Below, piece after piece: positions 7,636 to 50,932 of a stretch of DNA of 64,000 nucleotides; position 1 is the first letter of the stretch; every line of letters begins with the position of its first letter. The stretch comes from Bacteroidota bacterium (lineage in GTDB: Bacteria; Bacteroidota; Ignavibacteria; Ignavibacteriales; SURF-24). A program made the position numbers and the translations under genes. The stretch lies in NCBI GenBank assembly GCA_050258935.1, contig JBLMZS010000013.1, positions 141,190 to 205,189 on the forward strand, in the 5' to 3' direction. Under the pieces are notes generated by a model, which worked only from the letters and a program-made list of their open reading frames with translations, had not been told where the DNA came from and ran no database searches.

Positions 7636-7647
7636 TTTGATATCCTG

Positions 7648-9912: not shown

Positions 9913-10022
9913 AATCGTATTAGTGTTGTAAAATATAAAAATGGACGAAACCCGCCCTCTGCCAGAGCAGATCCCGTCCGTGTGCGTAACATGAACGAGT
10001 AAGCTATGTTAAATTACAATAC

Positions 10023-11888: not shown

Positions 11889-11929
11889 AGTATATCCTGA
11901 TGATAATGAATCATTTGAGAATTATAGAT

Positions 11930-11977
11930 ATAAAAAGAAGCTAGATGCGGCGGAGCTGCTAGAGTGTGCCGCATCTA
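11930..11977 (-). terminator. Terminator after the PorV-like gene
   Basis: 10-bp stem TAGATGCGGC / GCCGCATCTA at 11942-11951 and 11968-11977. On the minus strand it is followed by GCTTCTTTTTAT. Confidence 0.6.
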
Positions 11978-12017
11978 TTTCACCCTTCTAAGGAGTAGAG
12001 AGTTAAAAAGTAATGAA

Positions 12018-13043
12018 CTAAAAAGTAATACCTACAGAGAATTTCTGTATTTCCTCGAGTCTGCCGAAATCCGCATAAGAATAGTCAAATTTAACTGCGA
12101 CGTTTCCGAGCAGCATCTGTTTCAGACCGATACCGAGAGTAAATGATTCCTCGGAATCATCGAGGAACAGCGATTTGTAGCCGCCGCGCAGGAAGACAAC
12201 ATCGCTGAATGAATACTCGGCGCCGACGTTTACGGATTCATAGTTGTCGCTCGGATGAAGGGCATCGACTGCAATTGCAAGTTTATGGTCTTCAGTGAAC
12301 TTAGCCGTATATCCCAGACCTACTCTGAACATAAGCGGCAGCGACCATTCATCTGTCTGGAGGTTTGCGGGAATGTTTCCGTTATTTCCTGAATTTTCCG
12401 GATCGCTGTCGTATATAACCACATTGGAATTTCCGGTCATCTGCATTTTTGTACCGAAGTTTGAAATTGACATAGCGAGAATAATACCTTCAAAAGGAGT
12501 GCGGTATTTAACACCCATATCTATTGCAAATGCGGTAGCGCTCATTTTCCAGATCGACTGATGTACAAATTTCGGATTAAAGCCTATGGCAAAATTGTCG
12601 GTAAGGTTTATTCCGTAGCCGATACTGAATACTGCATCGCTGGCGCTGAATATTTCACCTGTGCCCAGTGGTTCGTCTACAGTAGTAACATTCATATCGC
12701 CATAGCTAGAAGATGTAAAGCTCACACCTATCGTTCCCATACCGCCCAGTCCGTAAGTCGCTGCCACATAGTTGTAAGTAACATCGGAAATCCAGTTAGT
12801 ATGATCAAACACAACCGCGCCATCTTCCATGCTGGCAAGTCCTGCCGGATTCCAGTACATAGAGCTTGGGTCATCGGCAATGGCAACAAAGGCACTGCCC
12901 ATTGCCGTAGCCCTCGCACCCTGTCCTATCAGAAGAAACGGAGCGGCGGATGTACCTCTTTTGGACACATCAGTAACGATGCTCTGTGCATGTCCAACTG
13001 TCACAATAGTCAACAGTAATATCACTAAAAATTTATTTCTCAT
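12018..13043 (-). CDS. PorV/PorQ-like (FadL-superfamily) outer-membrane beta-barrel
   Basis: Has a signal peptide. N-terminal motif GARATAMGSAFVAIADDPSSMYWNPAGLA. Amphipathic strand pattern. C-terminal …FSVGITF. Confidence 0.65.
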   Translation of the reverse strand: MRNKFLVILLLTIVTVGHAQSIVTDVSKRGTSAAPFLLIGQGARATAMGSAFVAIADDPSSMYWNPAGLASMEDGAVVFDHTNWISDVTYNYVAATYGLGGMGTIGVSFTSSSYGDMNVTTVDEPLGTGEIFSASDAVFSIGYGINLTDNFAIGFNPKFVHQSIWKMSATAFAIDMGVKYRTPFEGIILAMSISNFGTKMQMTGNSNVVIYDSDPENSGNNGNIPANLQTDEWSLPLMFRVGLGYTAKFTEDHKLAIAVDALHPSDNYESVNVGAEYSFSDVVFLRGGYKSLFLDDSEESFTLGIGLKQMLLGNVAVKFDYSYADFGRLEEIQKFSVGITF

Positions 13044-13057
13044 TTTTCCTATCTCCG

Positions 13058-16000: not shown

Positions 16001-16234
16001 TACTTCGCCGTTGTTGTAATACAGGGTTCTGACCAGGTTACCATCCATGACTCCTTCCCTGCGGTAGCGGACATCACCTTTCAGGTCATCCCTGTATTTC
16101 TGAATCTGAGGATCGACTACCTGCCCGTATAATGAAGGGCAGACGACCAGCAGCAGAAGCCAGAGTTTTTTCATATAAGATTTATTTGTATTCAATTTTT
16201 TAAGCATTATATTTCCTCCGGTATAGAAAAACAT
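13058..16234 (-). CDS. Large secreted protein of unknown function with Ca-binding acidic loops and a T9SS/FlgD-Ig-like C-terminal domain
   Basis: The annotated ATG overlaps the receptor stop (TAATG, 16232-16236). A more likely start is M21 at nt 16174, giving the signal peptide MKKLWLLLLVVCPSLYG. DxDxDG-type loops DDDEDGIVDE, DINGNGKWD and DDVGEDG lie at nt 14984-15253. The C-terminus reads …VVPNPYLGAASWE…YGVYFYHVDAPGIGTYIGKFAVIK. Confidence 0.8.
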   Translation of the reverse strand: MFFYTGGNIMLKKLNTNKSYMKKLWLLLLVVCPSLYGQVVDPQIQKYRDDLKGDVRYRREGVMDGNLVRTLYYNNGEVGQWPYMPSGEWPKGSGHSYLDGVAVLVTTEITAPATGKKEHPLETSYREWMDKDLKTGTIWGLEPVPGYFNESSENMALNTNKNSWPATWPSALGLSSEWNGYWYGYFGRGVNNSDFETFFVMDDSKDGEWQQPAYKYYPLASDSSRGGLGLRVEVRGFQWSHVLAEDIIFWHYDIVNISDNPYPNTYFGFYTDCGVGGKDDSEDDNASFDKKIDLAYCYDSNGKGVPNDWKTGYYGYAYLESPGNSTNGMDDDEDGIVDEKRDDGIDNDKDWKSYVDINGNGKWDSKLNEPLNDDVGEDGVGPFDPQYLGPDPGEGDGIPTAGEPNFDKTDKDESDQIGLTSVSIYRLGQGGTGGGWPKDDEAMWQRMSSTKFDTSLQKSNISMVFASGSFPLNEGKRERFSMALLFGDNLDDIKFNKETVQQIYNANYNFSKPPYKPTLTAVPGDGKVFLYWDSIAEESRDPFLGFEGGDMTKGYKKDFEGYLVYRSTEAEFNDIKTITDSKGAAKYWKPIAQFDKIDKITGPDPVGINGASFWRGDDRGLSHSYVDTDVKNGQRYYYALVSYDMGDPSYGTKGLQPSECTKIISEDYAGNVQFVDINCAVITPNAPVAGYKAPEITGDLNSAQGIGTGGLNVFVLNPDAIKAGASYKIQFTSAGDVPKYKTTSYSILRILNGVTDTLQAALDTSFIGVDKYSPPFDGLTMSVKNDTAIAVIDTATGWLSSKSNLGIHVLPETSSRGISWPSDYEIQFTDAPADTSFIEAAAQGYKKFPVNFTITNKTTGKRSKFATKDYDLSGSLTIGDEIQILEFVGSQSVSNSRIAWRVLYSAPDDPLANPVMPAGGDKYEIKTSKQFKTGDYFTFTPKAMSVDNSMAKTELSKISVVPNPYLGAASWERRTLNTNDRGERKIDIINLPAKCTVRIYNMAGSLVKTLEKDSSPSDGSISWNLVSEDGMEIAYGVYFYHVDAPGIGTYIGKFAVIK

Positions 16235-19011
16235 TAAAATCCAAATCCGAAACCAAGTCTGATCTCTCTCGGCGAGGAATACATGCTGGGATTTGAAGTA
16301 TATTCAGAAATTGTATTCATCCCGATAATATCCCCGGCATATTTAGTATTGAGATCTCTGTTGGCGCGTCCTGTTGTAGAATAAACACCATTTTCATTTT
16401 TTATATCGAGCAGGTTATAGACCAGCAGGAATGTATTCAGATTAACTCCGTAAATGTTGAATGTTTTCTCTGCACGGAAGTCTACATTATATGTCGCCGG
16501 TTTAATTCCGCCGTTCTGGAATCTTATACCGTTTGAGACCTTGATATCTTCGGTATATGGGAAGCCTGATCCATACTGGAATACTATGCCGGTCGTCCAG
16601 TCGCCCGGTTCACCCACCGTAAGTTCAAGGTTGAGTGTATTTCTCTGATCCCAGTCGAGGGGCAGCACTTTCTTTGTTTCAGGAATCGGGGGATCTGTCT
16701 GGTTGTTGTTGAAAACGGACATAGGATCAGATGCATTGCCTTCTGCGATCTGATATGTATAATCCACCTTGGCGCTGAAGTAGTCGGCAAATCTCTTTTC
16801 GAGGGTAACTATAAAACCTCTTACGTTACCATAGTCCCTGTTGATATACCTGGCGTATTTGAAACCTTCATATGTGTTGATGATTTCCATACCAAGAAGA
16901 TTTCTGATATCACGGTAGTAGGCAGTAAAGTTAAGAACGACGTTCGGGAACAATACCTGCTGAAGACCGATTTCATACATTACAGTTTTCTGCGGTTTCA
17001 GATCGGGATTACCGGTGATATATGAAAGCGATTCACCCGGATTAACTATGAAATCAGGGTTTGTATACAGGTTTTCATAATTCGGTATCTGGAAGAAGTG
17101 TCCGTAGGAAAATCTGATGATACCTTCATCGGTGATCGGGAACGAAGCTCCGAGTCTTGGGCTTATCTGAAATTTCGGATCAACTTTTCTCATCACTCCT
17201 GCATTGGGGAAATCGGGATTTCTTCTGGGATTCCTGAGATCTGCAAGCAGTTCTGAATTCGGATCGAAATAATCGAGCCTGATACCGGCATTTATGATCA
17301 TGATATCATATTCCATTTTATCCTGGATGTATGCCGAAAATTCGCGGGGCGTTTTGTTATAAAGTATATTTGAACCCTGGTCGGTCATAGTGCCCTGATC
17401 AGGATAGCCAGGTGTAAATATTACCTTGCCCGTCAGAGTGTCGACCTGCCCGTCTGTCAGATTTACGAGATCCAGATTGTGCTGAAACATCTTGTGGAGC
17501 CTGGCTTCTGCACCCATGCCGATCTTGTGTTCCTTGGTTATCTGTGAAGCAAGTGTCCACTGAATAATTTTTGTAATAGTTGTTCTGTAATATCTTCCGC
17601 CCTGATTGCCGCCTGACCTGAACACATAGTTTGTAAGGGCGACACCCTGGCGGGGACTTACGTATCTCTGGTCGAACATATCCTCATAAAGATAACCTTC
17701 ATAGTTATGTTCATTATATGAGAACTTAAGGCTCTGATAAGTGTTGGAACTGGGATAGTGGAAAATCTGAAAACTGTGGATGGCATTTTTCCTGTAATGA
17801 TTCATTATACCATCAGGAGTCCATGAATAGCCATGATCGTAGTATTTATTATAATTATCGTCCCACATCAGGCCGTATGTAAATTTAAGATAAGGAGTTG
17901 AATAACTGATCTTTCCATTTACGGAATATTTTCTGTCCGGATTCATAGGTACGTATGAGCTGTCGCCGGTATGGATATAATAATAAACATTGTCTCCAAA
18001 GGGCAGTTTGACCGGAGCGTCGTCATTTACGCTGTAGATCCTCCTGCCATAAAGGTGCCCCTTGTTATCATAATATCTGCCGGATACAAAATAAGTCAGA
18101 TTTTTTACGATAGGTCCGCTGAAACTGAACTGAAAATTTTTCGTAGCTATATTGTCAAGCTTGTCGAGGTTTTTGAAAAGATCGTCGTGTGTTGTAAAAT
18201 AGTTTCCGATATATCCCGAAGCTGTTCCCTCAAATTTTGCAGACCCCTCCTGAGTAACTATGTTTACTATACCAGACATAGCCTGTCCGTATTCAGCGTT
18301 GAAAGTACCGCTAATAACTTCCATCTGGCGAATCGAGTTATTATCCACCTCAAGGCTCATGCCGCCGTTATAAGCATCTGTAACGGACACTCCGTCGATC
18401 AGATATGCAACCTCGTTGGAACGTCCGCCGCGGAAGTGTCCGCCAACGACACCAGCCTGAAGGTTGATCACCTGGCCGACATCCTCAACCGGCATCATCT
18501 TCATATCCGAAGCGGAAATGGTGGCTGATGTGGATGTAAGATCCTTCTGAACCAGTGGTCTGTCTGCCTTTACAACGACTTCCTGCCCCAGTGTAAGCGT
18601 TGTCGACTTTATCTGTATATCTATTCGAGTAGTTAAATCTATTTTAACTAAAACATCTTCAACGGTCACTTTTGAATAGCCGACGGCACTGGCAATAATC
18701 TTATGAGTGCCGGGCTGAATGTTGCTAATACTATAATATCCATCTATATCCGTTGCGGCACCCAGGTAGGTACCTTCAACTATAACATTCACACCAAATA
18801 CCGGTTGTCCTGTTTCATCGGTCACTTTACCTGTAATCTTTCCAGTGGTTCCGGCAAATACTGCTCCGGAGGCCAGCACGGAAATTATGAACATGAGCAG
18901 GTACTGTTTTGCATTCGCAAATCTTATAGTAAACCGCTCCATGTTAGTGTTTTTTTCAGCAGAGGTTTCCAAATCCAAAGCCTCCTTATATTGTATATTC
19001 AGCATATTCAC
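16234..19011 (-). CDS. TonB-dependent outer-membrane receptor with an N-terminal CarboxypepD_reg-like domain
   Basis: The probable true start is M24 (MERFTIRF…, nt 18942), giving the signal peptide …ASGAVFA. Contains GKITGKVTDETGQPVFGVNVIVEGT, a plug and a long barrel. C-terminal …REIRLGFGFGF. Confidence 0.9.
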   Translation of the reverse strand: MNMLNIQYKEALDLETSAEKNTNMERFTIRFANAKQYLLMFIISVLASGAVFAGTTGKITGKVTDETGQPVFGVNVIVEGTYLGAATDIDGYYSISNIQPGTHKIIASAVGYSKVTVEDVLVKIDLTTRIDIQIKSTTLTLGQEVVVKADRPLVQKDLTSTSATISASDMKMMPVEDVGQVINLQAGVVGGHFRGGRSNEVAYLIDGVSVTDAYNGGMSLEVDNNSIRQMEVISGTFNAEYGQAMSGIVNIVTQEGSAKFEGTASGYIGNYFTTHDDLFKNLDKLDNIATKNFQFSFSGPIVKNLTYFVSGRYYDNKGHLYGRRIYSVNDDAPVKLPFGDNVYYYIHTGDSSYVPMNPDRKYSVNGKISYSTPYLKFTYGLMWDDNYNKYYDHGYSWTPDGIMNHYRKNAIHSFQIFHYPSSNTYQSLKFSYNEHNYEGYLYEDMFDQRYVSPRQGVALTNYVFRSGGNQGGRYYRTTITKIIQWTLASQITKEHKIGMGAEARLHKMFQHNLDLVNLTDGQVDTLTGKVIFTPGYPDQGTMTDQGSNILYNKTPREFSAYIQDKMEYDIMIINAGIRLDYFDPNSELLADLRNPRRNPDFPNAGVMRKVDPKFQISPRLGASFPITDEGIIRFSYGHFFQIPNYENLYTNPDFIVNPGESLSYITGNPDLKPQKTVMYEIGLQQVLFPNVVLNFTAYYRDIRNLLGMEIINTYEGFKYARYINRDYGNVRGFIVTLEKRFADYFSAKVDYTYQIAEGNASDPMSVFNNNQTDPPIPETKKVLPLDWDQRNTLNLELTVGEPGDWTTGIVFQYGSGFPYTEDIKVSNGIRFQNGGIKPATYNVDFRAEKTFNIYGVNLNTFLLVYNLLDIKNENGVYSTTGRANRDLNTKYAGDIIGMNTISEYTSNPSMYSSPREIRLGFGFGF

Positions 19012-19037
19012 AGTCTCATTATCTTTAAGGATTAGAA

Positions 19038-19068
19038 CAGGATATCTCCCGGTTCGGGAGATATCCTG
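19038..19068 (-). promoter_or_regulatory. Intercistronic stem-loop between the surface-protein gene and the TonB receptor gene; possibly an attenuator or processing site
   Basis: 14-bp perfect stem CAGGATATCTCCCG / CGGGAGATATCCTG with a 3-nt loop. On the minus strand only a weak T tract (TTCTAATCC) follows. Confidence 0.4.
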
Positions 19069-19077
19069 GAATGTGTA

Positions 19078-21588
19078 TTATTTAATTAACATCATTTTCT
19101 TTACGCTCTGGAAATCACCGGCCTTTATCTGATAGAGATATATACCGCTGGCCAGATGCGAAGCATTGAATGATACTGTATGTGAACCGGCATCCTGCTG
19201 CATATTAACAAGACTTGCCACTTCTCTTCCCAGTACATCATATACCTTCAGAGTCACTAATCCGGCCTGTCCGAGCGAATATTTGATCTGAGTAGACGGA
19301 TTGAACGGGTTAGGATAATTCTGATCGAGTGAGTATGTCGTAGCAACCATTGGTTTGTCATTTACTCCGACTGTCCACTGATCACCGATCCAGGTGTATA
19401 ACCATCTCCATACATCCTGATACGATTTATCATCGTTGAAAGGCGAGTAACTGAGGATACCTTCTCTTTGACCAGTAGCATCGGCATCATTAAGAGAGAT
19501 ATCAATTGGAATTCTCATGCCGTTTGCAGGAACGAACAGAGAGTCGAAATTGGTGGCGCCTGCATTTCTTTTTCTTGCAAAATCAGCCAGAGGAATTCTT
19601 GCTTCTACTACATATCCGGTCGGGAATTTTTCAGTCCATGAATAATTAGCTCCGGGAAGCAGCAGTGTATCAAGTGACTGTCCGTCAAAACGGGCTTTGT
19701 CCTTTGAGAATCTTGCATGATAATCGGGTGAAAGTCCTCTTCCATAACCGGCGTGAGGAACACCGTGCCAGTCATAGAGACCTATATAGAGATCTGCACA
19801 GTCATTCTTATAATCGTCAGTATTTGCAGGATTGACAGTTATCATATCGTCTTCGACGTCGTAAGCAACGTAAAGGTTTTCCTTGTCAATAGCGAGGTAA
19901 ACTTTTGCTGAGCAGTCTGCGTCATCATTGATAAGTGTATTAGGAGCAACAAATCCGGTACCCTGTGATCTTGCAACAGTAATCGGAGTGATTGCTGACC
20001 ATTCTTTCAGATCGCCGTCGGCAGCAAATGAAGTTGCCGGAGGATTGAGTGATATTGTCGGAACACCGAGAGCTGTGTTAGTAGCTGCACCTGCAGGAGC
20101 TGCTATTTCACTGGCATTACCGAATGCGTCTGTACAAACGATAGCATAATAGTATGTTACCTGCTGATCAGATACCGGTGCACGGAGAAGGTGCTCGACT
20201 ACCGAAACGTTCTCTCCTATTCCCTTCTTTACTACTTCTACGTCTGATGATTTGATGTCTGTAATCGGTGATTTTGAATAGTATACGTCGTATACTTCTT
20301 TTGATTCACCAGGTACATCTGTCCAGCTGATAAGGTTGCTGTTTGTGCTGGCATTGACCATTACGCCGTCAGGTTTATTCGGAGCGACAACGTCAAATAC
20401 AGGGTTGCCTGTCCAGATATCGTCCATATAGATATCGCATGCCTTGGATGAACCGTTTTCTGTGAGAATTTCGAATTTCTTCACCTTTGAAGAATCGAAT
20501 CCGGCTTTATTATCTGATACCACCCAGTTGCGCAGAGGTATTCTGATAGTTTTCCACGTGCCGTCCCAGTTGTAGTCTGCAGCTTTTGCAACATATTTAA
20601 TTGCTGCATCAGTACCTGCCTGGGTATTGCTCATGAACTGAATACGTATATCATCGCCGAATTCAGCGGGAACTTTCACTTTCATTTTCAGAGTATCGTT
20701 GGTGATCCAGTTTCCGGCCATGTTCTTTTCAGCAAAGTCAAAGTACATGCCCGACCAGCCGCCGCCGCCGCTCCACTTGATAGCCGATTTACCCTGTGCA
20801 GAGCCGGAATTTGGTTCAATAGCAACAGAACCGCCCCAGCCTCCCATTGTAAGGTCGCCGGTAACTACTTTTCCGTTGAATACTACGAACGGTACAGACC
20901 TGTAGCCAAACCTGGTGAAATTATCGTAGCTTACGACTATCGAGTCCATGGGAAGATTTCTCGGAGCCACATATCCGGTTGTAATTATACCGAGGTTAAA
21001 GCCGACTATTTTATCTCTGTCAAGCTTTTCATTGTTGTATGTTCCGCCGCCCCAGCTCTTCGGGAAAAGTACAAATCCCTCTGCATTCGGAGTTACAGAA
21101 CCATCGGTAGGACGTTCAACGAGCGGAACTCTCAGGTTAACCCAGCCATCTGCCTTGTCCAGTATGACGGTCTGTTCGTAAATGTATTCTTCGTTAGATA
21201 CATCGGCACTCGGTCTGTCGGCAATGTGAATCCTGAAGACCATGTTTTCAGGGAGCGTCGGGGCCTGATGAACTTTGATCCAGATGCTGAGTGAATCACT
21301 TCCGCTCCAGTCGAACGGAGCTGCATCACTGGGAACACTGTAAATTAACTGGGCATAGCTGCCCCAGGGATGTGCAGAATCAACAGTAGCTGTTACTTTT
21401 ACTGCACCGGTACCTTCGTGTTTGTCAGTCTGATCGATCACGTTGACCATCTTGGATTTTCCCTCGATGCTCACCTTGTACCTGGTACTCAGTGAATCGA
21501 AATTATCGATTTCGAATACCTGTGCGTATGACATAACAGGAAGAAACCACAACATCAACAGAAGTGATTGTAGCAAACGCTTTTTCAT
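19078..21588 (-). CDS. Secreted multi-module carbohydrate-binding surface protein (beta-sandwich modules, FN3, CBM9-like) with a T9SS C-terminal sorting domain
   Basis: Signal peptide MKKRLLQSLLLMLWFLPVMSYAQ. FN3-like PNKPDGVMVNASTNSNLISWTDVPGESKEVYDVYYS. CBM9-like block DGDLKEWSAITPI…AKVYLAIDKENLYVAYDVEDD…GYVVEARIPL…ISLNDAD. C-terminal domain QNYPNPFNPSTQIKYSL…SGIYLYQIKAGDFQSVKKMMLIK. Confidence 0.8.
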   Translation of the reverse strand: MKKRLLQSLLLMLWFLPVMSYAQVFEIDNFDSLSTRYKVSIEGKSKMVNVIDQTDKHEGTGAVKVTATVDSAHPWGSYAQLIYSVPSDAAPFDWSGSDSLSIWIKVHQAPTLPENMVFRIHIADRPSADVSNEEYIYEQTVILDKADGWVNLRVPLVERPTDGSVTPNAEGFVLFPKSWGGGTYNNEKLDRDKIVGFNLGIITTGYVAPRNLPMDSIVVSYDNFTRFGYRSVPFVVFNGKVVTGDLTMGGWGGSVAIEPNSGSAQGKSAIKWSGGGGWSGMYFDFAEKNMAGNWITNDTLKMKVKVPAEFGDDIRIQFMSNTQAGTDAAIKYVAKAADYNWDGTWKTIRIPLRNWVVSDNKAGFDSSKVKKFEILTENGSSKACDIYMDDIWTGNPVFDVVAPNKPDGVMVNASTNSNLISWTDVPGESKEVYDVYYSKSPITDIKSSDVEVVKKGIGENVSVVEHLLRAPVSDQQVTYYYAIVCTDAFGNASEIAAPAGAATNTALGVPTISLNPPATSFAADGDLKEWSAITPITVARSQGTGFVAPNTLINDDADCSAKVYLAIDKENLYVAYDVEDDMITVNPANTDDYKNDCADLYIGLYDWHGVPHAGYGRGLSPDYHARFSKDKARFDGQSLDTLLLPGANYSWTEKFPTGYVVEARIPLADFARKRNAGATNFDSLFVPANGMRIPIDISLNDADATGQREGILSYSPFNDDKSYQDVWRWLYTWIGDQWTVGVNDKPMVATTYSLDQNYPNPFNPSTQIKYSLGQAGLVTLKVYDVLGREVASLVNMQQDAGSHTVSFNASHLASGIYLYQIKAGDFQSVKKMMLIK

Positions 21589-21747
21589 ATTCTTACCTCC
21601 TGATAGTTTTTAAATAAACATTTTATAAGAGCAGCATTACCCTTATATGACTTACTTCACTTTTCTAACTCAACAGATAGAAACTCTATTTATTATATAT
21701 CCATTTGAGAAAATATTTTCAGGTAATAATATCCCTGAACCGGTCTG

Positions 21748-23286
21748 TCAGAATGGATACTTGCCCGCTGCAGTAGCCTTAATTTCGGCTTCACCGGGTA
21801 TTTCATTTAACTTCGCTACAGTCATTGGAACAGGAAACATTTTACTGATAGCAAATATCATAATAGTACAAATTGCAAATGAAAATATCGAGAAATGCAA
21901 AAAGTTAATATTTACTATTGATCCTACGAGACTCGCAGGACTGGCATCTGCGAAATAATTATCGAAGAGCAGTTTTGCCGATCCGAGGATTTCACCCAGC
22001 AGCAGCGTCCAGAAGGCACCGCGGGCATTTACTTTTTTGTTCATCAGTCCGAATAAAAAAACCACAGTAATCGGAGGAGCAAAAAGTCCCTGCAGATTCT
22101 GCAAAGAAAGATAGACCTGCGAATTAATTATCTTGATTATCGGGATGCATAGTATAGCCACAATAACCATTCCCATCGTCATAAGTCTTCCGACGAGCAC
22201 CAACTTTACATCTGATACATCCGGATGGTTAAGCTTGTAATAATCGTTGGTGAAAAGTGCTGCCGATACATTGAATACGCTGGCGAGTGAAGACATAATA
22301 GCCGAAAGCAGACCCACGACCACCAATCCTTTAATGCCGGCCGGAAGAATATTGCTGGCTATCAGTGTCGGATATGCCTCGTCACCCCTTATTTCCGGGA
22401 AAAGTGCGACAGCAATGAGTCCCGGCAGAACCAGAATGAAAATAGGTGTTATCTTCAGCAGTGATGCGAATATGGAACCCTTGCGCGCGTCGGCGATGCT
22501 GCGGGCGGATAAAAGCCGCTGGACAATATACTGGTCAGTACACCAGTACCAGAATGCCAGTATCGGAGCGCCGAACAGCATTCCGGTCCACGGGAAATCC
22601 GGATCGCCTGCAGGTTTAATAATATGGAAGTACTGGGGATCCAGCTTCTGATACAGCCCGGTAAATCCGCCAACATGATACAGGCCGAATACAGTCAGTA
22701 TGACCGCTCCAAGCAGCAGCAGCACTGCCTGCAGAACATGTGTTTTCATAATCGTATAGGAACCGCCGATAACGCTGTATATACCGGTTATAAGCACCAG
22801 TATTATTGCAGAAGTATATATGTTCAGTCCGAACATTTTCTGGAACAGAAAGCCTCCGGCCAGAAGGGATACAGAAATCTTAGTGACTATATATACAATA
22901 ATTGAAATCAGAGAGAACAGTTTTCTGCTTCGGCGGTCAAAGCGCTCTTCCAGAAATTCAGGAGTGCTCATTATGCCGGAGCGTATGAATACAGGAGCGA
23001 CAAAACGCCCGAGCAGTATCAGTATAAACACCGCGAGCAGTTCAAACTGCCCTACCGCCAGACCACGTGTTGCACCTGAACCGGCAAGTCCGATGAAGTG
23101 TTCACTTGATATATTCGTAGCAAATATTGATAGTCCGACGGTAATCCAGCCCATCTTTCTGCCTGCAAGAAAGTATCCGGCCATGTCTTTGGTTTCACGG
23201 CTGGAATAATAAAATGCCATGCTCAGCAGTACGATGAGATATGCAAAGAGTATCGAAAAATCTATTAGTGTAAATTGACCGTTCAT
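21748..23286 (-). CDS. Sodium:solute symporter family (SGLT-like) sugar transporter
   Basis: 512 aa with about 13-14 predicted TM helices. SSF-type N-terminus …YFLAGRKMGWITVGLSIFATNISSEHFIGLAGSGATRGLAV. Confidence 0.9.
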   Translation of the reverse strand: MNGQFTLIDFSILFAYLIVLLSMAFYYSSRETKDMAGYFLAGRKMGWITVGLSIFATNISSEHFIGLAGSGATRGLAVGQFELLAVFILILLGRFVAPVFIRSGIMSTPEFLEERFDRRSRKLFSLISIIVYIVTKISVSLLAGGFLFQKMFGLNIYTSAIILVLITGIYSVIGGSYTIMKTHVLQAVLLLLGAVILTVFGLYHVGGFTGLYQKLDPQYFHIIKPAGDPDFPWTGMLFGAPILAFWYWCTDQYIVQRLLSARSIADARKGSIFASLLKITPIFILVLPGLIAVALFPEIRGDEAYPTLIASNILPAGIKGLVVVGLLSAIMSSLASVFNVSAALFTNDYYKLNHPDVSDVKLVLVGRLMTMGMVIVAILCIPIIKIINSQVYLSLQNLQGLFAPPITVVFLFGLMNKKVNARGAFWTLLLGEILGSAKLLFDNYFADASPASLVGSIVNINFLHFSIFSFAICTIMIFAISKMFPVPMTVAKLNEIPGEAEIKATAAGKYPF

Positions 23287-23324: not shown

Positions 23325-23340
23325 GTCATAAACAATGCCA
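23325..23340 (-). promoter_or_regulatory. Weak candidate sigma54 (-24/-12) promoter for the glycan-utilisation operon
   Basis: The minus strand reads TGGCATTGTTTATGAC about 50 nt upstream of the symporter ATG. The -24 TGGCA is perfect. The -12 is ATGA rather than TTGC, so the conserved C is missing. Confidence 0.2.
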
Positions 23341-23467
23341 GAGGTGAAAAGTCTTCAAATCCGTAAAATTTCGCGGTATTGTGTATCCAGTGGTATTTCC
23401 GGGCAGGGTTTTTATTTATTAAAATTATAATCGGTTTTATTATTTTAATAAGGGAGCATACAGTTTT

Positions 23468-23540
23468 CAGTTGTTAGTTCTCAGTTCTCAGTTAACTAAC
23501 AACTGAGAACTAATAACTGAGAACTAATAACTGATAACTA
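23468..23540. repeat. Array of direct and inverted copies of a 13-14-nt motif (AACTGAGAACTAA[T])
   Basis: Direct copies lie at 23501-23514 and 23515-23528, with a degenerate copy at 23529-23540. An inverted copy TTAGTTCTCAGTT lies at 23474-23486. A 12-bp perfect stem pairs 23468-23479 with 23494-23505. The last copy overlaps the regulator stop codon. Confidence 0.85.
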
Positions 23541-25001
23541 TTTAAGTCCCAGCTCTTTGGCCATGCGGTAATAGTTTGAAGGAGCGAGCCCCAGTTTCTG
23601 TGCTGCTTCAGTATCTGAAGAAGAGTTTTCCCTGATAAAAAGGAAATATTTCTGTCTGAAAATCCGCTCCATTTCCTTCAGTGGCAGCACTTCGCTTTCT
23701 GTATTGAACTCCACACAGTTGCTGTTGTTGCCGAAATTTTTCTGAAGGTCTATACTGTTTATGAGCATCTGTGCATGGTAATATGTAATCAGATTTTCAT
23801 CGGTAAAGAAAAACCGCTGAACTACATTGATCAGTTCCCGGACATTTCCGGGCCAGTCGTAATTCAATAGTACATCCCATGCACTCTGGTCGATTACGGG
23901 TTTTTCCCTGGTCATATCAATCGATATCTTGTTCAGGAAGTGTTCGGTCAGCAGTGGTATATCGCTTTTCCTCTGTTTCAATGGCGGGACGACTATCTGC
24001 ACGACATTCAGGCGGTAATAGAGGTCCTCGCGGAATCTCCTGGCCCGGACCTCCTCCTCGATATTTCTGTTTGTGGCGGCAATAATTCTGACATCCACTT
24101 TTACCTTTTCGGTCCTGCCGATTTTTTCGATCTCGCCTTCCTGAATAACTCTCAGCAGTTTCACCTGCGCAGAAAGAGGCAGTTCCGTGATTTCATCCAG
24201 AAATACCGTGCCCCTGTGCGCAATCTCAAACAGTCCGGGTTTTCTTTTATCTGCACCGGTAAATGCACCTTTCTCGTATCCGAACAGTTCGCTTTCGACA
24301 AGATCGTTCGGAAGGCTGCCGCAGTTGATCGGTACAAAGTTTTCCGAGCGGCGGCTGCTGTTATAGTGGAGGTTATATGCAACCACCTCTTTGCCAGTGC
24401 CTGAATCGCCCTTGATCAGTACATTTACGTTTGTCTTTGAATATTTCAGCAGATCCTCTTTTAGTTTCACCATGAGTGAAGATTCACCTATAATACGCTT
24501 GGCCTCCAGTATAGAATCTGCATTCCTGAGTAGTTTCTGGTTTGACCTGTTCCTCTCTTTTTCCAGTATCGATTTTTCATAGGCGTTGAATATACTTATA
24601 ATAAAGTCGGTCGGCTGATAGATAAAGTCCTCTATATCTCCGGGATATTTGGTGCAGTACCAGAAAGCGCCTGCCTTCAGCAGTTTATTCGCAAAGTCGT
24701 AGTCCGTAATGTTAATAGTCATCTTTGTAATCACTATTATCTGCAATGAACAGTTGATCTCCTTTATTCTCTGGATAAGTGCATCACCCATCAGTCCGCC
24801 TGCTATCTGGAAGTCCATAATCACCACATCGTAGGTCTCGCTTCCCGATTTGATGAGCTCAATAGCATCTCTCCCATTGGAAACAATTTTCGCTATCCTG
24901 ATTTTATCTTCAAATGGCTTGATAGTGTTTTCCACCCGTCTGACGTCAAAGTCTTCATCTTCAATCAGCAATACCTTAATGACTTTGTCAGTATTCATCA
25001 T
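23538..25001 (-). CDS. Sigma54-dependent response regulator (receiver + AAA+ EBP + C-terminal HTH)
   Basis: Receiver domain VLLIEDEDFD…DVVIMDFQI. Walker A GDSGTGKE. Sigma54-contact loop ESELFGYEKGAFTGA. C-terminal HTH AAQKLGLAPSNYYRMAKELGL. Confidence 0.9.
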   Translation of the reverse strand: MMNTDKVIKVLLIEDEDFDVRRVENTIKPFEDKIRIAKIVSNGRDAIELIKSGSETYDVVIMDFQIAGGLMGDALIQRIKEINCSLQIIVITKMTINITDYDFANKLLKAGAFWYCTKYPGDIEDFIYQPTDFIISIFNAYEKSILEKERNRSNQKLLRNADSILEAKRIIGESSLMVKLKEDLLKYSKTNVNVLIKGDSGTGKEVVAYNLHYNSSRRSENFVPINCGSLPNDLVESELFGYEKGAFTGADKRKPGLFEIAHRGTVFLDEITELPLSAQVKLLRVIQEGEIEKIGRTEKVKVDVRIIAATNRNIEEEVRARRFREDLYYRLNVVQIVVPPLKQRKSDIPLLTEHFLNKISIDMTREKPVIDQSAWDVLLNYDWPGNVRELINVVQRFFFTDENLITYYHAQMLINSIDLQKNFGNNSNCVEFNTESEVLPLKEMERIFRQKYFLFIRENSSSDTEAAQKLGLAPSNYYRMAKELGLK

Positions 25002-25009
25002 AACTCCGT

Positions 25010-26485
25010 TTATTGATTAATTGAAATAACAAACCGGCATCCTCCAGTCGCAATATTCTCCGCATCCAGTTCCCATCCGCACCGTTTACTCATCACATAT
25101 GCAATATAGCAACCGTATCCGTTATTTTTTATGCCGGACTGTTTTGTAGAACTGTGTTCCAGAAATATTTTTTTGAGTGCCTTGCTGTCATCTGTTTCGA
25201 GAAGACCGGGTGCGACTCCTTTGCCATTATCTTCAATACTGAGGACAATTTTGCGGTTATCACAGTCATACTTTGAACATATTTTTATAGTTACAAAATC
25301 CACCCCGCTGTGTTCGATGCAGTTCTGTATCAATGGTTCAATTATCTCCCACAGCACAAACTCATTTATCTGGAGTACCGGCAGATTTTCTTCCAGGTCC
25401 ATTTTTATTTCAAATGCCTGTGACTGGTATGAGATGCGCAGGAAAATATTCTGCACTATAAAGTTTATTACTTCGTTCAGGTTTGTCCTGAATATCTGAT
25501 TCCTGATAGTCTGCACCGGCGGATCAAACCATTTCATGTCATATATCACTCTGGAAATGAAATTGCTGTAGCGTGTAACGCGGTATTTGATTTCTTCTGT
25601 ATTATGCTGAGAAAGCTGTCTGAGATCATCCTTTATAAAACCCATGATCTTTTCTGCCTTGTGGTGCGTATGATAAATCCGCTTTGTAAAAGTCATTTCC
25701 TTTTCGTGGTTGATCTGCTTTTCAAGGTTGCTTTCATATTCCTGCAGGAGCATCTTCTGCGCCTCATTTCTCTCCTTTACGGTATAGGAGGATATAAAGA
25801 ACATGGCTAGGAGTCCCAGAAGTATAAGAGACATATATATCAGGGATGTTTCGTCGTAGCTGTATATGATCTGATCGGTTATTACCGAAAAGTCCGGTGT
25901 ATTCCTGATGTACAGGGCACCTATGTACTCTCCACGGAGCACAAGAGGTACAAATGTATGGAAAGTTCTCTTTTCAGTTATTATGCTTTTTATCTGTTCC
26001 TTTTCTATAAGAGTATTTTTAACCTGTCTGTACAGTGCAATAGTGGAATCATATTTTCTCTGTGCAGGGGCTATCTCCCTGTGCTCAAGGAACAGTGTAA
26101 AAAAGTTAGTACCATCATCAATTGCATATGTATGTCCGTTCCGTTCGACTATTATGCACAGCTCCCCGATATTATTCTGAAGTTTCTGCTGACTGAAGAC
26201 AATATCAAAAGACTGTATAATGTTTTTCAGCTCTTCATTGCTCATATGCTCTTTTCCGCTGATCGATTCGAGCAGCAGTTCAAGAGAAGTGGTAGTGAGA
26301 TTAGCCAGGTTTTCGGCCGAATCCTTCTGATACCATTCCTGAGTGCGCCCAAGAAGTCTGGTAATCGAGGACTTGTTCACCATTGACAGCACCAGCTGAA
26401 ATGCCAGCAATACTATGAACACTACCAGCAGGTGCTTGACCTCAAAATGATAGTAGCGAAGTTTGTCGCTGATTTTTTTGCTCAT
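25010..26485 (-). CDS. Membrane sensor histidine kinase (two TM helices flanking a ~180-aa periplasmic domain, atypical H-box)
   Basis: TM1 is LLVVFIVLLAFQLVLSMV and TM2 is LIYMSLILLGLLAMFFISSYTV. Candidate H-box RIYHTHHKAEKIMGF. GHKL N/G boxes EPLIQNCIEHSG, IEDNGKGV, NNGYGCYI. Lies 8 nt upstream of the response regulator. Confidence 0.75.
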   Translation of the reverse strand: MSKKISDKLRYYHFEVKHLLVVFIVLLAFQLVLSMVNKSSITRLLGRTQEWYQKDSAENLANLTTTSLELLLESISGKEHMSNEELKNIIQSFDIVFSQQKLQNNIGELCIIVERNGHTYAIDDGTNFFTLFLEHREIAPAQRKYDSTIALYRQVKNTLIEKEQIKSIITEKRTFHTFVPLVLRGEYIGALYIRNTPDFSVITDQIIYSYDETSLIYMSLILLGLLAMFFISSYTVKERNEAQKMLLQEYESNLEKQINHEKEMTFTKRIYHTHHKAEKIMGFIKDDLRQLSQHNTEEIKYRVTRYSNFISRVIYDMKWFDPPVQTIRNQIFRTNLNEVINFIVQNIFLRISYQSQAFEIKMDLEENLPVLQINEFVLWEIIEPLIQNCIEHSGVDFVTIKICSKYDCDNRKIVLSIEDNGKGVAPGLLETDDSKALKKIFLEHSSTKQSGIKNNGYGCYIAYVMSKRCGWELDAENIATGGCRFVISINQ

Positions 26486-26574
26486 GGCTTAACCTGTAGC
26501 ATGTGCTTAAAACAAATCTTTCTTTTGCATATAGTCATTCTTCATTCCTCATCCGGCAGTATCTTCAAAAACAC

Positions 26575-27924
26575 TTATTTCATAAAAATTCTTTTGGATT
26601 CAATAGCTTCTTCCGCCCTGCTGAGAGCTTCGCTTACAGACATTCTGTTCCTGATGGCCTGGTTCAGGTAATATGAAAGTTTGTCGGATATATTAGTATA
26701 ATTTTCCAGAAATGGCCTGTGAAATCCTGCAGACAGCAGCTTTTCATTAAACTTAAGTATTGGATGATTTTTCGCGTACTGCTTGTCGGCATAGACTTTA
26801 GTATTTACAGGAATATAACCGCCCTCCTCCAGCATTATTTTCTGGGCTTCCACGCTCTGGAAAAAGTTGATAAACATTACAGCCTCAGGTATCTTGGTAG
26901 AAAATGCAGAAACCATAAGGTTCCATCCCCCGAATACTGCTTTGGGTGGATAACCGCGGAAATGAGGGACCGGAGCTTGTCTGAGATTCGGATTGAATCC
27001 CTTTACATAGGGTTTATCCAGCAGGCCCGACCAGCCTCTGAGGAATACACCATTTTTTCTGAGGAAATAACTGTAACTGGGGTCTTCTCTGAAGCGGACT
27101 ATATCTGAAGGTGACATATTATATTTATTGACCAGATCAACCAGCAGCTGAAGCGCCCTATGTGCCTGTGGTGTATGCAGCTGCAGCTTTCCGTCTTTTA
27201 CCATAGGGCATGACAGACTTTCCATGAGTTCTGCAAATATACAGATCAGTCCCTCAAAATCATCGGCCTGGTAGATAAAGAACGGACTTCCGGCTTCGCC
27301 AAGCCGCTGATGCAGTGCAATAAAATCTTCCCAGGATATAGAACTGTCTATTTTTTTCTGTATTTCGGCGTAATCAGGGAGCTGTTTGAGTGCGTCAACA
27401 TTGTAATACATCTGTGCTATATCAATATATAACGGAGTGGCAATTAACCTGCCGTCATAATAACACGAACTGAGCGAGTAATGCAGCAGCTGCTCTTTCT
27501 GATTTCCGGCGATATATTCTTCCAGAGGCACCGCCCACCTGGCAAACCGGGGTACCCAGATAAGGTCAACAGCAAAAACGTCGATACGGCCGCTTTTACT
27601 GCGCAGGTATCTGACGAGAAGTTCTTTTCTTTCGTTCGTGCTGAATTTATCGAACGGCAGGTCGACCGCTTCAACCTCAATCTGCCCTTTGTAGCGCTGA
27701 TTGAACAGGTCAATGACGCGTCTGTGTGCCGGAGATATGCTGTCTACATAGTAAATCTTCTTGACCGAATTATTGTCCAGATCACTGGGACCGAACAGAG
27801 ATGAAATGAATACGAAGAATGCAAAGACCAGTATTATAGCAGTGCTGATCACTATATAGTATAGTTTTTCAGATCTGAATTCCTTCAGATATTCCTGAAT
27901 CTTCCTTATAAGATTTTCCCGCAT
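26575..27924 (-). CDS. Membrane-anchored family-1 extracellular solute-binding protein (sugar-binding type), orphan with no ABC permease or ATPase nearby
   Basis: N-terminal TM anchor YYIVISTAIILVFAFFVFISSLF. SBP_bac_1-like blocks DVFAVDLIWVPRFA, VFGGWNLMVSAFSTK, FINFFQSVEAQKIM. Confidence 0.8.
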   Translation of the reverse strand: MRENLIRKIQEYLKEFRSEKLYYIVISTAIILVFAFFVFISSLFGPSDLDNNSVKKIYYVDSISPAHRRVIDLFNQRYKGQIEVEAVDLPFDKFSTNERKELLVRYLRSKSGRIDVFAVDLIWVPRFARWAVPLEEYIAGNQKEQLLHYSLSSCYYDGRLIATPLYIDIAQMYYNVDALKQLPDYAEIQKKIDSSISWEDFIALHQRLGEAGSPFFIYQADDFEGLICIFAELMESLSCPMVKDGKLQLHTPQAHRALQLLVDLVNKYNMSPSDIVRFREDPSYSYFLRKNGVFLRGWSGLLDKPYVKGFNPNLRQAPVPHFRGYPPKAVFGGWNLMVSAFSTKIPEAVMFINFFQSVEAQKIMLEEGGYIPVNTKVYADKQYAKNHPILKFNEKLLSAGFHRPFLENYTNISDKLSYYLNQAIRNRMSVSEALSRAEEAIESKRIFMK

Positions 27925-28275
27925 AGTTCGCCATACCGGAATAATTTGTCAATCATTTTTCATTCTGGGTGATTAATATATGGAATATAAATTTTAAAAA
28001 GAAACAGCCCCTTCTGCAGAGAATCCCTGTGGGAGTATGTTTTAAGCACAAACTCCAATCTGAAAATTTTATTTTCCTGCTTCTGGCGGGCTTATGTTTT
28101 TGATAATCGAAAATTATTAAAATGATAATCAGTGCAAAAATCAGCGTACAAATTTGCATCGAATAGCACTAAAATGGCGCTTGATGAAGCCACAACCGGA
28201 AAGGCATAGAATTTGTCGCTGCAACACCGTAAATTGTATAATTACAAATAAAAGATACTTTGACAGGAGATCATA

Positions 28276-29595
28276 ATGGCAAGCTCAGCTACGGTTATGG
28301 AACCGGGAACAAAAAAACGAAACGGAGCAGGCGGTACCGCGGAGGATAAAAATTACTCCTTCCCTCTGACTGTTCTGACCTCACTGTTTTTCATGTGGGG
28401 ATTTCTTACGTGCTTAAACGACATTCTAATACCACATCTGAAAGCTGTGTTTGACCTGAACTATACACAGGCCATGCTGATTCAGTTTTGCTTTTTTGCG
28501 GCGTATTTTATAGTATCGCTGCCTTCAGGCATAATTGTGGAAAAGACAGGTTACAAGAAGGGAATCGTGATCGGACTGGTTACAGCAGGTATAGGCTGTC
28601 TGATTTTCTATCCCGCCGCCGGAATGCGTTCCTATCCGGTATTTCTGTTTGCATTTTTTATACTTGCCTCTGGAATAACATTGCTGCAGGTGGCGGCAAA
28701 TCCCTATGTTACAATTTTAGGCAAGTCCGAAACGGCTTCGAGCAGGCTGAATCTTACACAGGCGTTTAATTCACTGGGTACGACCATTGCGCCTTATCTG
28801 GGATCACTATTCATCCTTTCGGTTGCCGTCAAAACCGCCGCTGAACTGAAAGCCATGGATACACACCAGCTGGCAATGTATCAGGAGACCCAGGCCAATG
28901 CAGTTCAGGTACCATACCTCGGACTTGCCGCTGCACTGTTTGTAATTGCAGCTATATTTGCAATAATAAAACTTCCGGAAATTGAAGCACATACAGAACC
29001 CGCTTCAGGAAACGGGACAGCCGCAGTAGCCGGGAGTGCATGGGGCTACAGACACCTCGTGTTGGGTGCACTCGGAATATTTGTATACGTAGGAGCTGAA
29101 GTTTCCATAGGAAGTTTTCTTGTAAATTATATAGGCCAGCCGTTTATAGCTGGACTCAAGGAAGCCGATGCCGGCAAATTCGTGTCATTCTACTGGGGCG
29201 GTGCAATGGTCGGAAGGTTTGCAGGCTCGTATATTCAGCGCAAAATTAAACCCGGATATATGCTGGCATTCAATGCATTTGTTGCAGCAGCTCTCGTGGT
29301 CACCACGATGCTGACATCAGGTTATTTTGCCATGTGGGCTATATTGCTGGTAGGTTTATTTAATTCCATCATGTTCCCTACCATTTTCTCGCTGGGAATA
29401 GAGGGGCTGGGAAAACACACCGGTCAGGGCAGCGGAATCCTCTGCATGGCTATTGTTGGCGGAGCAATAATACCTGTAATTCAGGGGCTGTTTGCCGACC
29501 AGATCGGAATTCATCATGCTTTCATACTGCCCGCAATTTGCTACATCTATATTGCATACTACGGCCTGAAAGGACATATACCGGTCAGACAGTAA
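28276..29595 (+). CDS. MFS glucose/galactose (GluP) or L-fucose (FucP) type H+ symporter
   Basis: Signature [25 protein letters not shown]. 12-TM profile, 439 aa. Confidence 0.85.
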
Positions 29596-31475: not shown

Positions 31476-31524
31476 CCCGCCCTGCCCTAATCAACTAATA
31501 CTCACTTTATTCTCAGGGGATAAC

Positions 31525-49107: not shown

Positions 49108-49125
49108 TTGGGCAATTCACTGTCG

Positions 49126-50846: not shown

Positions 50847-50867
50847 AAGGTACCTTTATATTTAAAA

Positions 50868-50898: not shown

Positions 50899-50899
50899 C

Positions 50900-50927: not shown

Positions 50928-50932
50928 TCCAG

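Follow-up and report, generated by a model that had tools for sequence, protein, structure and literature searches.

How does a glycan-degrading bacterium learn that its substrate has arrived? The question is raised by a 64,000-nucleotide stretch of DNA (contig JBLMZS010000013.1 of assembly GCA_050258935.1, positions 141,190 to 205,189; hereafter, the window), in which genes encoding a solute-binding protein (SBP), a sensor histidine kinase (HK), and a response regulator (RR) lie beside genes for glucan degradation and sugar uptake. The organism, represented by a metagenome-assembled genome (MAG) that carries the NCBI label "Bacteroidota bacterium," is of the Ignavibacteriales type and belongs to the Ignavibacteriota, not to the Bacteroidota in the strict sense. 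Members of this phylum abound as degraders of polysaccharides in sediments, aquifers, bioreactors, and soils, and to our knowledge next to nothing has been established on how they regulate glycan use. The answer we consider probable is a three-component sugar-sensing system: an SBP-dependent kinase signals to a sigma-54 enhancer-binding regulator, which controls the adjoining glucan and sugar-uptake genes. This logic, put forward in an initial annotation of the DNA, is supported by the invariant order of the triad, by its glucan and glucose-uptake neighbors, and by conserved enhancer and -24/-12 promoter elements. The three genes are as follows.

26575..27924, minus strand: SBP gene, 449 amino acids; sensor solute-binding protein of the sugar-type family 1 (carbohydrate uptake transporter 1, CUT1), without a transporter.
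25010..26485, minus strand: HK gene, 491 amino acids; two-transmembrane sensor histidine kinase.
23538..25001, minus strand: RR gene, 487 amino acids; NtrC-family response regulator and sigma-54 enhancer-binding protein.

The initial annotation described three co-directional genes with the RR gene 8 nt past the HK gene, and the open reading frames (ORFs) of the window agree: all three lie on the minus strand, with 89 nt between SBP and HK and 8 nt between the HK stop and the RR start. The SBP and the kinase both have many homologs, at 49-58% and 59-64% identity, respectively, and nearly all are labeled Ignavibacteriales or Ignavibacteriaceae. For comparison, 80 loci from different MAGs (Ignavibacteriaceae, Melioribacteraceae, and Kryptoniota) were retrieved by a genome scan with the kinase, and the window proteins were placed on them by tblastn. 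The order SBP-HK-RR holds in every locus that retains its flanks (SBP in 78/80, RR in 77/80; the exceptions are truncated contigs), and the triad appears to be single-copy per genome. Loci L025 and L027 indicate that the cultivable Ignavibacterium album is among its carriers. A regular-expression scan for ATP-binding cassette (ABC) transporter and permease motifs covered ORFs of at least 150 amino acids in the window and the 80 loci, 1.47 Mb with 81 triad copies in all, and the scanner was validated by its recovery of the GAFTGA motif. No ABC permease, ABC ATPase, or sigma-54 factor is encoded by any window ORF of that size, which bears out the earlier statement that the window holds no ABC partner, and neither LSGGQ nor the CUT1 "EAA" permease motif occurs in any such ORF across the 1.47 Mb. 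Therefore, in those members of the phylum that were sampled, no transporter partner for the SBP is encoded nearby.

What kind of receptor is this SBP? It matches Pfam SBP_bac_1/SBP_bac_8 (E about 1e-12, above the gathering scores), and its sequence matches in the PDB are the trehalose/maltose-binding protein TMBP (1EU8, E 4e-42), MalE3, the alpha-glycoside-binding protein, and LpqY. The AlphaFold2 model has a pLDDT of 90; the best Foldseek match is again 1EU8 (TM 0.81), and TM-scores to TMBP and MalE3 span 0.81-0.86. The nearest solved relatives are the T. litoralis trehalose/maltose-binding protein (28% identity), T. maritima MalE3, the T. thermophilus alpha-glycoside-binding protein, LpqY, and SmoF. 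By fold, the protein belongs to the class I/II periplasmic-binding proteins and, by sequence, to CUT1/family 1; it lacks the two adjoining permease genes, and usually ATPase gene, of a CUT1 importer. Its N terminus carries the following feature.

27799..27855, minus strand: N-terminal membrane anchor of the SBP (residues 24-42); a single 19-residue hydrophobic segment, Kyte-Doolittle 2.66.

In the AlphaFold2 model, residues 2-44 form one long N-terminal helix. The hydrophobic segment is present in 74/74 SBP homologs (70 with that segment alone, 4 with a second one) and a lipobox in 0/74. The earlier description of a family-1 sugar SBP that keeps its N-terminal transmembrane anchor is thus upheld by Pfam, by hydropathy, and by the lack of a lipobox. 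Within the pocket, R99, D168, and W334 align with the ligand residues R49, D118, and W287 of 6J9W, which are the residues mutated in the deposited series of ligand complexes; R403 corresponds to R356 of 6J9W by position offset alone, as the printed alignment stops at chain residue 344. All four residues are invariant across the SBP family. Because the fold and these four residues are preserved, the pocket is, judged from its sequence, intact and of the glucoside-binding type; linkage specificity is not readable from conserved residues.

The kinase is less conventional. Two of its segments deserve separate mention.

25850..26377, minus strand: periplasmic sensor domain of the HK (residues 37-212); about 176 amino acids between the transmembrane segments, PAS/PDC (sCache)-like by predicted fold.
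25649..25681, minus strand: atypical H-box RIYHTHHKAEK (residues 269-279); invariant in 65 aligned kinases and 80 locus-derived kinases.

Hydropathy places transmembrane segments at residues 18-36 and 213-231, and two such segments occur in 80/80 homologs, consistent with the earlier reading of a two-transmembrane kinase with a periplasmic domain of about 180 residues. By Pfam, the protein matches HATPase_c alone, with no HisKA; its best NCBIfam match is AtoS (5e-8), and a sequence comparison of the kinase to the PDB gives weak HATPase matches and nothing else. The AlphaFold2 model (pLDDT 75) comprises the first transmembrane segment, a periplasmic alpha/beta module (a long helix, a helix, two strands, two helices, and three strands), and a second transmembrane segment that continues into a dimerization and histidine phosphotransfer (DHp) hairpin bearing the H-box, followed by a normal catalytic (CA) domain. 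Foldseek matches the model to HK853, WalK, ZraS, and LOV-kinase chimeras, with a TM-score of about 0.8 to WalK/YycG catalytic cores. N388, DxGxG at 419-423, and GYG at 456-458 are conserved, so that the DHp hairpin and the N, G1, and G2 boxes of the CA domain are as in a class I (HisKA-type) kinase. The isolated periplasmic and DHp segments retrieve no informative Pfam family at E<=5. The H-box, which had been flagged as unusual (HTHHKAEK), is indeed so: it is invariant, it does not take the H-[E/D]-x-x-[T/N] form (it reads Y-H-T-H-H-K-A-E-K), and the Pfam phospho-acceptor profiles HisKA, HisKA_2, and HisKA_3 do not recognize it even at E<=5. The phospho-acceptor is presumably one of H272, H274, and H275.

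The output protein of the triad resembles activators of the NtrC type. Specifically, Pfam assigns it Response_reg (7.5e-11), Sigma54_activat (2e-69), and AAA_lid_14, and its NCBIfam neighbors are NorR, AtoC, NifA, and NtrC, all under their equivalog cutoffs. The receiver aspartate (Asp63), the KP motif, Walker A, and the loop that contacts sigma-54 are conserved in 76 orthologs.

24252..24269, minus strand: codons of the GAFTGA loop, located by six-frame motif search; conserved in 76 orthologs.

The protein had been described as a receiver-AAA+-helix-turn-helix (HTH) regulator with GAFTGA. Pfam and the motif search recover the receiver, the AAA+ domain, and GAFTGA, but Pfam does not recognize the HTH. 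The C terminus holds a conserved segment, AAQKLGLAPSNYYRMAKELGL, which is HTH-like in look and gives weak HTH_IclR/Xre matches in Pfam (E about 0.15).

Which genes might the regulator act on? One indication comes from the DNA between the RR gene and the next gene on the same strand, which encodes a sodium:solute symporter (SSS). Three features are needed here.

21748..23286, minus strand: sodium:solute symporter (SSS/SGLT-like), which would head the regulated operon; Pfam SSF 7.6e-82, NCBIfam TIGR00813.
23326..23340, minus strand: SSS -24/-12 (sigma-54-type) promoter TGGCATTGTTTATGA; 75 nt past the enhancer and about 40 nt before the SSS ATG.
23416..23451, unstranded: SSS tandem palindromic enhancer (upstream activating sequence, UAS), TTATTAaaaTAATAA then TTATAAtttTAATAA; starts 21 nt apart.

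When the 120 nt 5' of the SSS gene were aligned across loci, the motif TGGCAyTATTTGTGn emerged, and a position weight matrix was built from these sites. The motif precedes SSS in 44/45 loci and in the window. From its end to the predicted start of SSS there are 28-38 nt, or 40 nt in the window, where it reads CTGGCATTGTTTATGAC (23341-23325, minus strand). The window site is the only match above 16 bits in the 64 kb (21.8 bits), and the matrix finds essentially one match per 21-kb locus, always before SSS. GG and TG are separated by exactly the distance seen in the sigma-54 consensus, TGGCAC-N5-TTGC. The enhancer was scanned for as tandem 17-bp palindromes, CTTATYA-N3-TAATAAG, with at most one mismatch per palindrome. 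At that threshold, the SSS enhancer is the only tandem pair in the window, and tandem pairs number 143 in 1.4 Mb of loci vs 0 in shuffles. In the great majority of loci, the SSS promoter is preceded at about 62-74 nt by the homologous enhancer, CTTATTAaaaTAATAAG-N5-CTTATCAatTTAATAAG, whose two palindromes begin 21-22 bp from each other; in nearly all loci, bar a few insertion-bearing outliers, the tandem palindromes end 50-96 nt before the -24 element. The sigma-54-type promoter that the initial annotation had predicted for the glucan operon is thus found before the first gene, enhancer included, and is kept in 44/45 loci. A sigma-70 consensus scan was uninformative (36 matches vs 35.9 expected).

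The same architecture faces the other way at the far end of the triad.

28276..29595, plus strand: GluP-type glucose/galactose transporter of the major facilitator superfamily (MFS); NCBIfam TIGR01272 gluP, 402 bits (cutoff 202).
28092..28128, unstranded: second tandem palindromic UAS, in the divergent gluP-SBP intergenic region.
28202..28216, plus strand: gluP -24/-12 (sigma-54-type) promoter AGGCATAGAATTTGT; 73 nt past the UAS and 60 nt before the ATG.

Two exact palindromes lie in 33/33 homologous gluP-SBP intergenic regions, and GGCAY-N5-nTG faces the MFS gene in the same 33/33 loci, at a median distance of 63 nt from the UAS. Among eight intergenic regions of the window, a -24/-12-like element occurs in RR-SSS and MFS-SBP alone, each time on the expected strand. 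The initial annotation had limited the regulon to the glucan operon; the SSS promoter fits that picture, but the divergent gluP has a second target promoter, which had been omitted. In other genomes, the enhancer and promoter architecture also stands before GH2 (glycoside hydrolase, GH) or MFS-trehalase genes, and a third promoter class, TGGTAY-N5-TTGY, precedes GH2 insert genes. The three promoter classes tied to the tandem enhancer share GG and TG alone, at sigma-54 spacing. The strict co-occurrence of triad and palindromes suggests that the RR binds these palindromes.

The notion, then, is as follows. A CUT1-type SBP, tethered to the inner membrane and devoid of a transporter, would bind a sugar that contains glucose once it reaches the periplasm. 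The likeliest such sugar is a small beta-gluco-oligosaccharide that is derived from beta-glucan and enters via the TonB receptor of the adjoining locus; the main alternative ligand would be glucose. Liganded SBP would dock on the PAS/PDC-like periplasmic domain of the kinase. The kinase would then autophosphorylate at its atypical H-box (H272, H274, or H275), and the phosphate would pass to Asp63 of the RR. Phosphorylated RR would assemble on the tandem CTTATYA-N3-TAATAAG palindromes (two copies, starts 21-22 bp apart), and its GAFTGA loop would remodel the sigma-54 holoenzyme that occupies -24/-12 promoters located 60-75 nt farther downstream. The predicted targets in the window are the SSS operon (SSS, a carbohydrate-binding module 9 [CBM9] protein, the TonB receptor, a type IX secretion system [T9SS] protein, a PorV-like outer membrane protein [OMP], and a GH3 enzyme) and the divergent gluP. 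We infer the SBP-kinase contact, the identity of the ligand, phosphotransfer, RR-palindrome binding, and sigma-54 dependence from the features above.

Several observations weigh against this mechanism. The canonical C at -12 is not conserved, being A, T, C, or G by promoter class (GTGn, TTGG, TTGA, TTGT, TTGC), and the canonical consensus scan (TGGCAC-N5-TTGCW, at most two mismatches), which we tried and set aside, gave fewer matches than chance and passed over the conserved SSS site. The link between RR and palindromes is one of co-occurrence only, and the C-terminal HTH of the RR goes unrecognized by Pfam (no HTH_8, with the C terminus searched at E<=5). No RpoN box is present in the window, in the 80 loci, or in 10-kb extensions of either window end. 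On the ligand side, the closest solved relatives of the SBP bind alpha-linked glucosides and trehalose, not beta-glucans, and the first gene behind each promoter encodes a monosaccharide-type transporter, which suits glucose sensing equally. A sigma-54 preference particular to the phylum may account for the relaxed -12 element. That rpoN is present in the genome is suggested by the conservation of the GAFTGA regulator and of the -24/-12 geometry; literature searches on Ignavibacteria and sigma-54 turned up nothing on rpoN in the phylum, and the Ignavibacterium album genome paper merely counts 16 sigma factors.

What is the signal? The alternative that survives best keeps the same sigma-54 circuit and makes glucose, the end product that GH3 and trehalase share in the periplasm, the inducer. 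The system would then be a glucose-uptake regulator like GltB-GtrS-GltR of Pseudomonas aeruginosa, and the glycan-harvesting genes would be passengers. We judge this unlikely, yet serious. The promoter-proximal genes encode glucose-type transporters (the SSS/SGLT-like protein, and GluP above its NCBIfam cutoff), and these transporters are the constant part of the regulon, while the GH and TonB-dependent receptor (TBDR) content varies. According to PDB entry titles, glucose is also among the ligands crystallized with the alpha-glycoside-binding protein, the one whose ligand residues are conserved in the SBP, and the triad is seemingly single-copy per genome among the 80 loci. Against glucose, disaccharides are what the closest solved relatives bind, the top 50 structural matches include no glucose-specific SBP, and free glucose that induced a glucan-harvesting apparatus would confer no substrate specificity.

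Three loci speak to both sides. In L065 (4881-8068), L077 (12924-15865), and L078 (12929-15870), the triad and the tandem palindromes are followed by an MFS gene and a GH37 trehalase gene instead of glucan genes, and the promoter before MFS is a variant -24/-12 element, TGGTCT-N5-TTGA. The product of the trehalase that this enhancer serves is likewise glucose, as a glucose signal would have it. However, the SBPs of these loci carry Y166N, K110S/N, R296W, E232D, and C228V, deviating at 9/66 positions that are at least 95% conserved in 42 glucan-context SBPs, and Y166N sits two residues from the ligand residue D168; a shared glucose ligand would need no such changes. The substitutions suggest that the SBP is tuned to the substrate of the adjoining locus. 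A small beta-gluco-oligosaccharide therefore stands as the most likely signal, in keeping with the logic of a glycan locus and with disaccharide binders as the closest solved SBPs, and we weight it moderately above glucose. The initial annotation had called the SBP an oligosaccharide sensor: the conserved sugar-type pocket agrees, but the ligands of its relatives are trehalose, maltose, and alpha-glucosides, and glucose must be kept in view.

A second, improbable alternative is that the kinase needs no co-sensor and perceives the sugar itself, by way of its periplasmic domain, with the SBP serving as a capture protein for a distant transporter or for the adjoining secondary transporters. PAS/PDC-like domains often bind ligands directly, the two-component part of CuaDSR alone still perceives cellobiose (PMC10384115), and the absence of ABC genes noted above covers loci and not whole genomes. 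However, the SBP gene is immediately 5' of the kinase gene in every complete locus (78/80), no ABC motif occurs within 10 kb on either side in any genome, the SBP is membrane-tethered in all homologs, and genes for kinase-stimulating SBPs sit with signaling genes, not with transporter genes (PMC8050422). Least likely is that TGGCAY-N5-nTG is not a sigma-54 promoter but a sigma-A -7 box or the operator of another factor, with the RR independent of sigma-54 (like TyrR and DhaR) or active on unrelated genes: the variable -12 position, the lack of an RpoN box in the window, loci, and extensions, and the SSS version TATTTGTG, which resembles the -7 box TAnnTTTG of the FCB group with one mismatch, would fit, but the gluP and GH2 versions do not match TAnnTTTG, the three otherwise unlike promoter classes share GG/TG at sigma-54 spacing 50-96 nt from the tandem palindromes in nearly all loci, and GAFTGA and the Walker motifs are kept in the 76 orthologs, whereas sigma-70-dependent homologs usually carry an altered GAFTGA (PMC3162934).

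Returning to the SBP-dependent sigma-54 circuit, how far do its transcripts reach? Four further features bear on this.

10023..21588, minus strand: remainder of the probable operon; CBM9/surface glycan-binding protein (SGBP)-like T9SS protein, TonB-dependent receptor, 1058-amino-acid T9SS-tailed protein, PorV/PorQ-family OMP, and a first GH3 (GH3a).
9943..9979, minus strand: terminator-like hairpin between GH3a and a second GH3 (GH3b); 16-bp stem and T-run.
6808..9912, minus strand: GH3b and GH16 (lipoprotein), assigned by Pfam; same pathway.
23460..23541, minus strand: long hairpin straight after the RR stop; 82 nt, -39.6 kcal/mol, z = -7.6 vs shuffles; tandem AGTTCTCAGTTRTT units and inverted copies.

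The internal intergenic regions of 10023-21588 contain no -24/-12-like element, and no strong terminator precedes 9979; SSS to GH3a are probably co-transcribed. Because a terminator-like hairpin follows GH3a, the sigma-54 transcript may end there, and GH3b-GH16 (6808-9912) may form a separate transcript. The earlier treatment of genes 6808-23286 as one target thus fits SSS to GH3a, but GH3b-GH16, past the hairpin at 9979-9943, are possibly separate. GH3a, GH3b, and GH16 all carry signal peptides, and GH16 also a lipobox; therefore, the enzymes release glucose before it reaches the cytoplasm, and SSS and GluP would take it up.

At the other boundary, the hairpin after the RR gene has no T-run past it, and inspection by eye of the sequence past RR in other loci, without a systematic search, brought no comparable hairpin to notice. 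It is a probable terminator or insulator of the sensor operon, and it may be either a terminator or a small repeat element. Since this very stable hairpin directly follows the RR stop, the sensor operon is probably a separate, constitutive unit, by analogy to aioXSR. Upstream of the sensor operon, TCTATATTTG/A is conserved 30-60 nt from the SBP start in many loci and matches the Bacteroidetes-type sigma-A -7 box TAnnTTTG; the window copy, at about 27960-27990, is weaker (TTATATTCC). The box is consistent with a constitutive housekeeping promoter of the sensor operon.

Across the sampled loci, the surroundings of the triad are conserved as well, and genes for a GluP-type MFS protein, an SSS protein, a TonB receptor, and GH3/GH16/GH2/GH5 enzymes are almost always near it. 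The gluP gene is divergent from the SBP gene in about 45 loci, and SSS, the CBM9/SGBP-like T9SS protein, and the TonB receptor follow the triad in about 50. In other genomes, the GH3, GH3, and GH16 genes lie mostly on the gluP side, downstream of gluP; the window has them at the end of the TonB-receptor operon instead. Some loci have inserts of 2-6 kb between RR and SSS that encode T9SS-secreted GH2, GH5+CBM6, or GH3+F5/8C enzymes. Is the locus a polysaccharide utilization locus (PUL) of the familiar kind? The TBDR is SusC-like at its N terminus alone, with 63 bits vs the SusC cutoff of 368, and Pfam and NCBIfam find no SusD in the locus, which therefore has no SusC/SusD pair. The gene after the TBDR encodes the 1058-amino-acid protein, which has no Pfam family and a weak signal for a T9SS C-terminal domain; the PorV/PorQ-family OMP (231 bits) follows. 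This trio of TBDR, 1058-amino-acid-type protein, and PorV/PorQ OMP (12018-19011, minus strand) recurs in the distant loci L041, L072, and L076. Such an arrangement, linked to T9SS and devoid of SusD, seems to be a form of "PUL" that is typical of Ignavibacteriota.

Other parts of the window hold genes of separate interest. Directly past gluP, on the same strand, 29766-33960 (plus strand) encodes a cytoplasmic PAS-GAF-HisKA kinase and an 845-amino-acid OMP_b-brl_3/TonB-receptor-like protein, in two ORFs that overlap each other by about 50 nt. At 47917-52369 (minus strand), a small cluster encodes an FAD-dependent monooxygenase, a methyltransferase, and a type III polyketide synthase; its neighbors are the genes for an extracytoplasmic function (ECF)-type sigma-70 factor and for a 248-amino-acid protein of no known family, possibly an anti-sigma factor. 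Finally, at 245-2575 (plus strand), a 776-amino-acid ORF has a class I/II aminotransferase domain in residues 30-388 alone, and its C-terminal ~390 residues have no Pfam match.

Does such a system have precedents? Binding-protein-dependent kinases are well documented (PMC8050422), and the precedents listed in the initial annotation hold, although the closest, AioXSR, had been left out. AioX-AioS-AioR of Rhizobium NT-26 and Agrobacterium is the closest in architecture. It likewise joins a periplasmic SBP, a kinase with an sCache-like sensor, and a sigma-54 NtrC-type regulator in one operon (PMC6011840, PMC8050422); its sensor operon is constitutive and apart from the target operon, and the adjoining target is transcribed from an RpoN promoter that regulator sites precede (PMC6011840). 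In contrast, AioX is a phosphonate-type SBP that binds As(III), while the SBP described here is a CUT1 sugar binder akin to TMBP and MalE3; the AioXSR target is an oxidase and not a set of transport and glycan-degradation genes; and the AioXSR host is proteobacterial and its promoter canonical (TGGCAC-N5-TTGCA), as opposed to the relaxed -12 and the atypical H-box found here. Closest in biology is CuaD-CuaS-CuaR of Ruminiclostridium cellulolyticum, in which a dedicated second sugar SBP, encoded beside the kinase and regulator genes, binds the beta-glucan product cellobiose and signals via the kinase ectodomain to induce uptake genes for cellobiose (PMC10384115). The CuaDSR host is Gram-positive, however; no sigma-54 enhancer-binding output is described for CuaR, and the target is an ABC importer and a phosphorylase, whereas secondary transporters and a TonB-receptor/T9SS locus are the targets here.

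In GltB-GtrS-GltR, a glucose-binding SBP_bac_1 protein contacts the kinase that controls glucose-uptake genes (PMC8050422). Unlike the SBP of the window, GltB has a dual role in that it also serves a glucose ABC transporter, and no polysaccharide locus is involved. GltR is not known to be a sigma-54 enhancer-binding protein. XylFII-LytS-YesN, LuxP-LuxQ(-LuxU-LuxO), TorT-TorS-TorR, ChvE-VirA, and CBP-ChiS are likewise binding-protein-dependent kinase systems, and CBP-ChiS is a glycan sensor, for chitin oligosaccharides (PMC8050422). These systems differ from the triad in SBP family (Peripla_BP_1, Peripla_BP_4, SBP_bac_5), in sensor fold (4HB, HBM, dCache), and in output, which is a LytTR-, AraC-, or OmpR-type regulator, direct DNA binding, or a multistep relay. 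The LuxPQ phosphorelay ends on a sigma-54 activator, LuxO. As for the PUL regulators of Bacteroidota (hybrid two-component, SusR, and ECF sigma/anti-sigma systems), there too a periplasmic sugar signal induces an adjoining TonB-receptor glycan locus, but the triad divides the task among three separate proteins, uses sigma-54 and an AAA+ activator in place of an AraC-type or ECF output, and has no SusD beside it.

Our comparison places the triad as a system that joins AioXSR-like and CuaDSR-like traits in a different phylum. Its distinguishing traits are a membrane-tethered, transporter-less CUT1 SBP; a kinase whose sensor domain and H-box are both unclassified; targets that comprise secondary transporters and a TonB-receptor/T9SS locus free of SusD; and the relaxed -12 element. 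Full-text literature searches found no description of such a system. Tentatively, and at slightly under even chances, we speculate that the triad founds an undescribed class of glycan-locus regulators for the SusD-less, T9SS-linked loci of Ignavibacteriota and Kryptoniota, with a tethered CUT1 protein that depends on no transporter and serves as a co-receptor alone, a new H-box family (HTHHKAEK), a sigma-54 output via two copies of CTTATYA-N3-TAATAAG and a phylum-specific relaxed -12, and a ligand retuned by lineage (beta-glucan products vs trehalose).

What these analyses provide is a testable regulatory model, in which the sensor proteins, a probable enhancer sequence, two promoters, and the regulon are named, with transcription predicted to start near 23314 (minus strand) and 28228 (plus strand), about 12 nt past each -12 element. 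If the model is true, an ABC binding protein of the sugar type has become a dedicated signaling receptor across a phylum, and a TonB-receptor glycan locus is under sigma-54 and not under the hybrid two-component, SusR, or ECF logic of Bacteroidota. The -12 element is apparently of a form that standard sigma-54 scans miss, and the enhancer and promoter motifs are directly usable for regulon mapping in any Ignavibacteriota genome.

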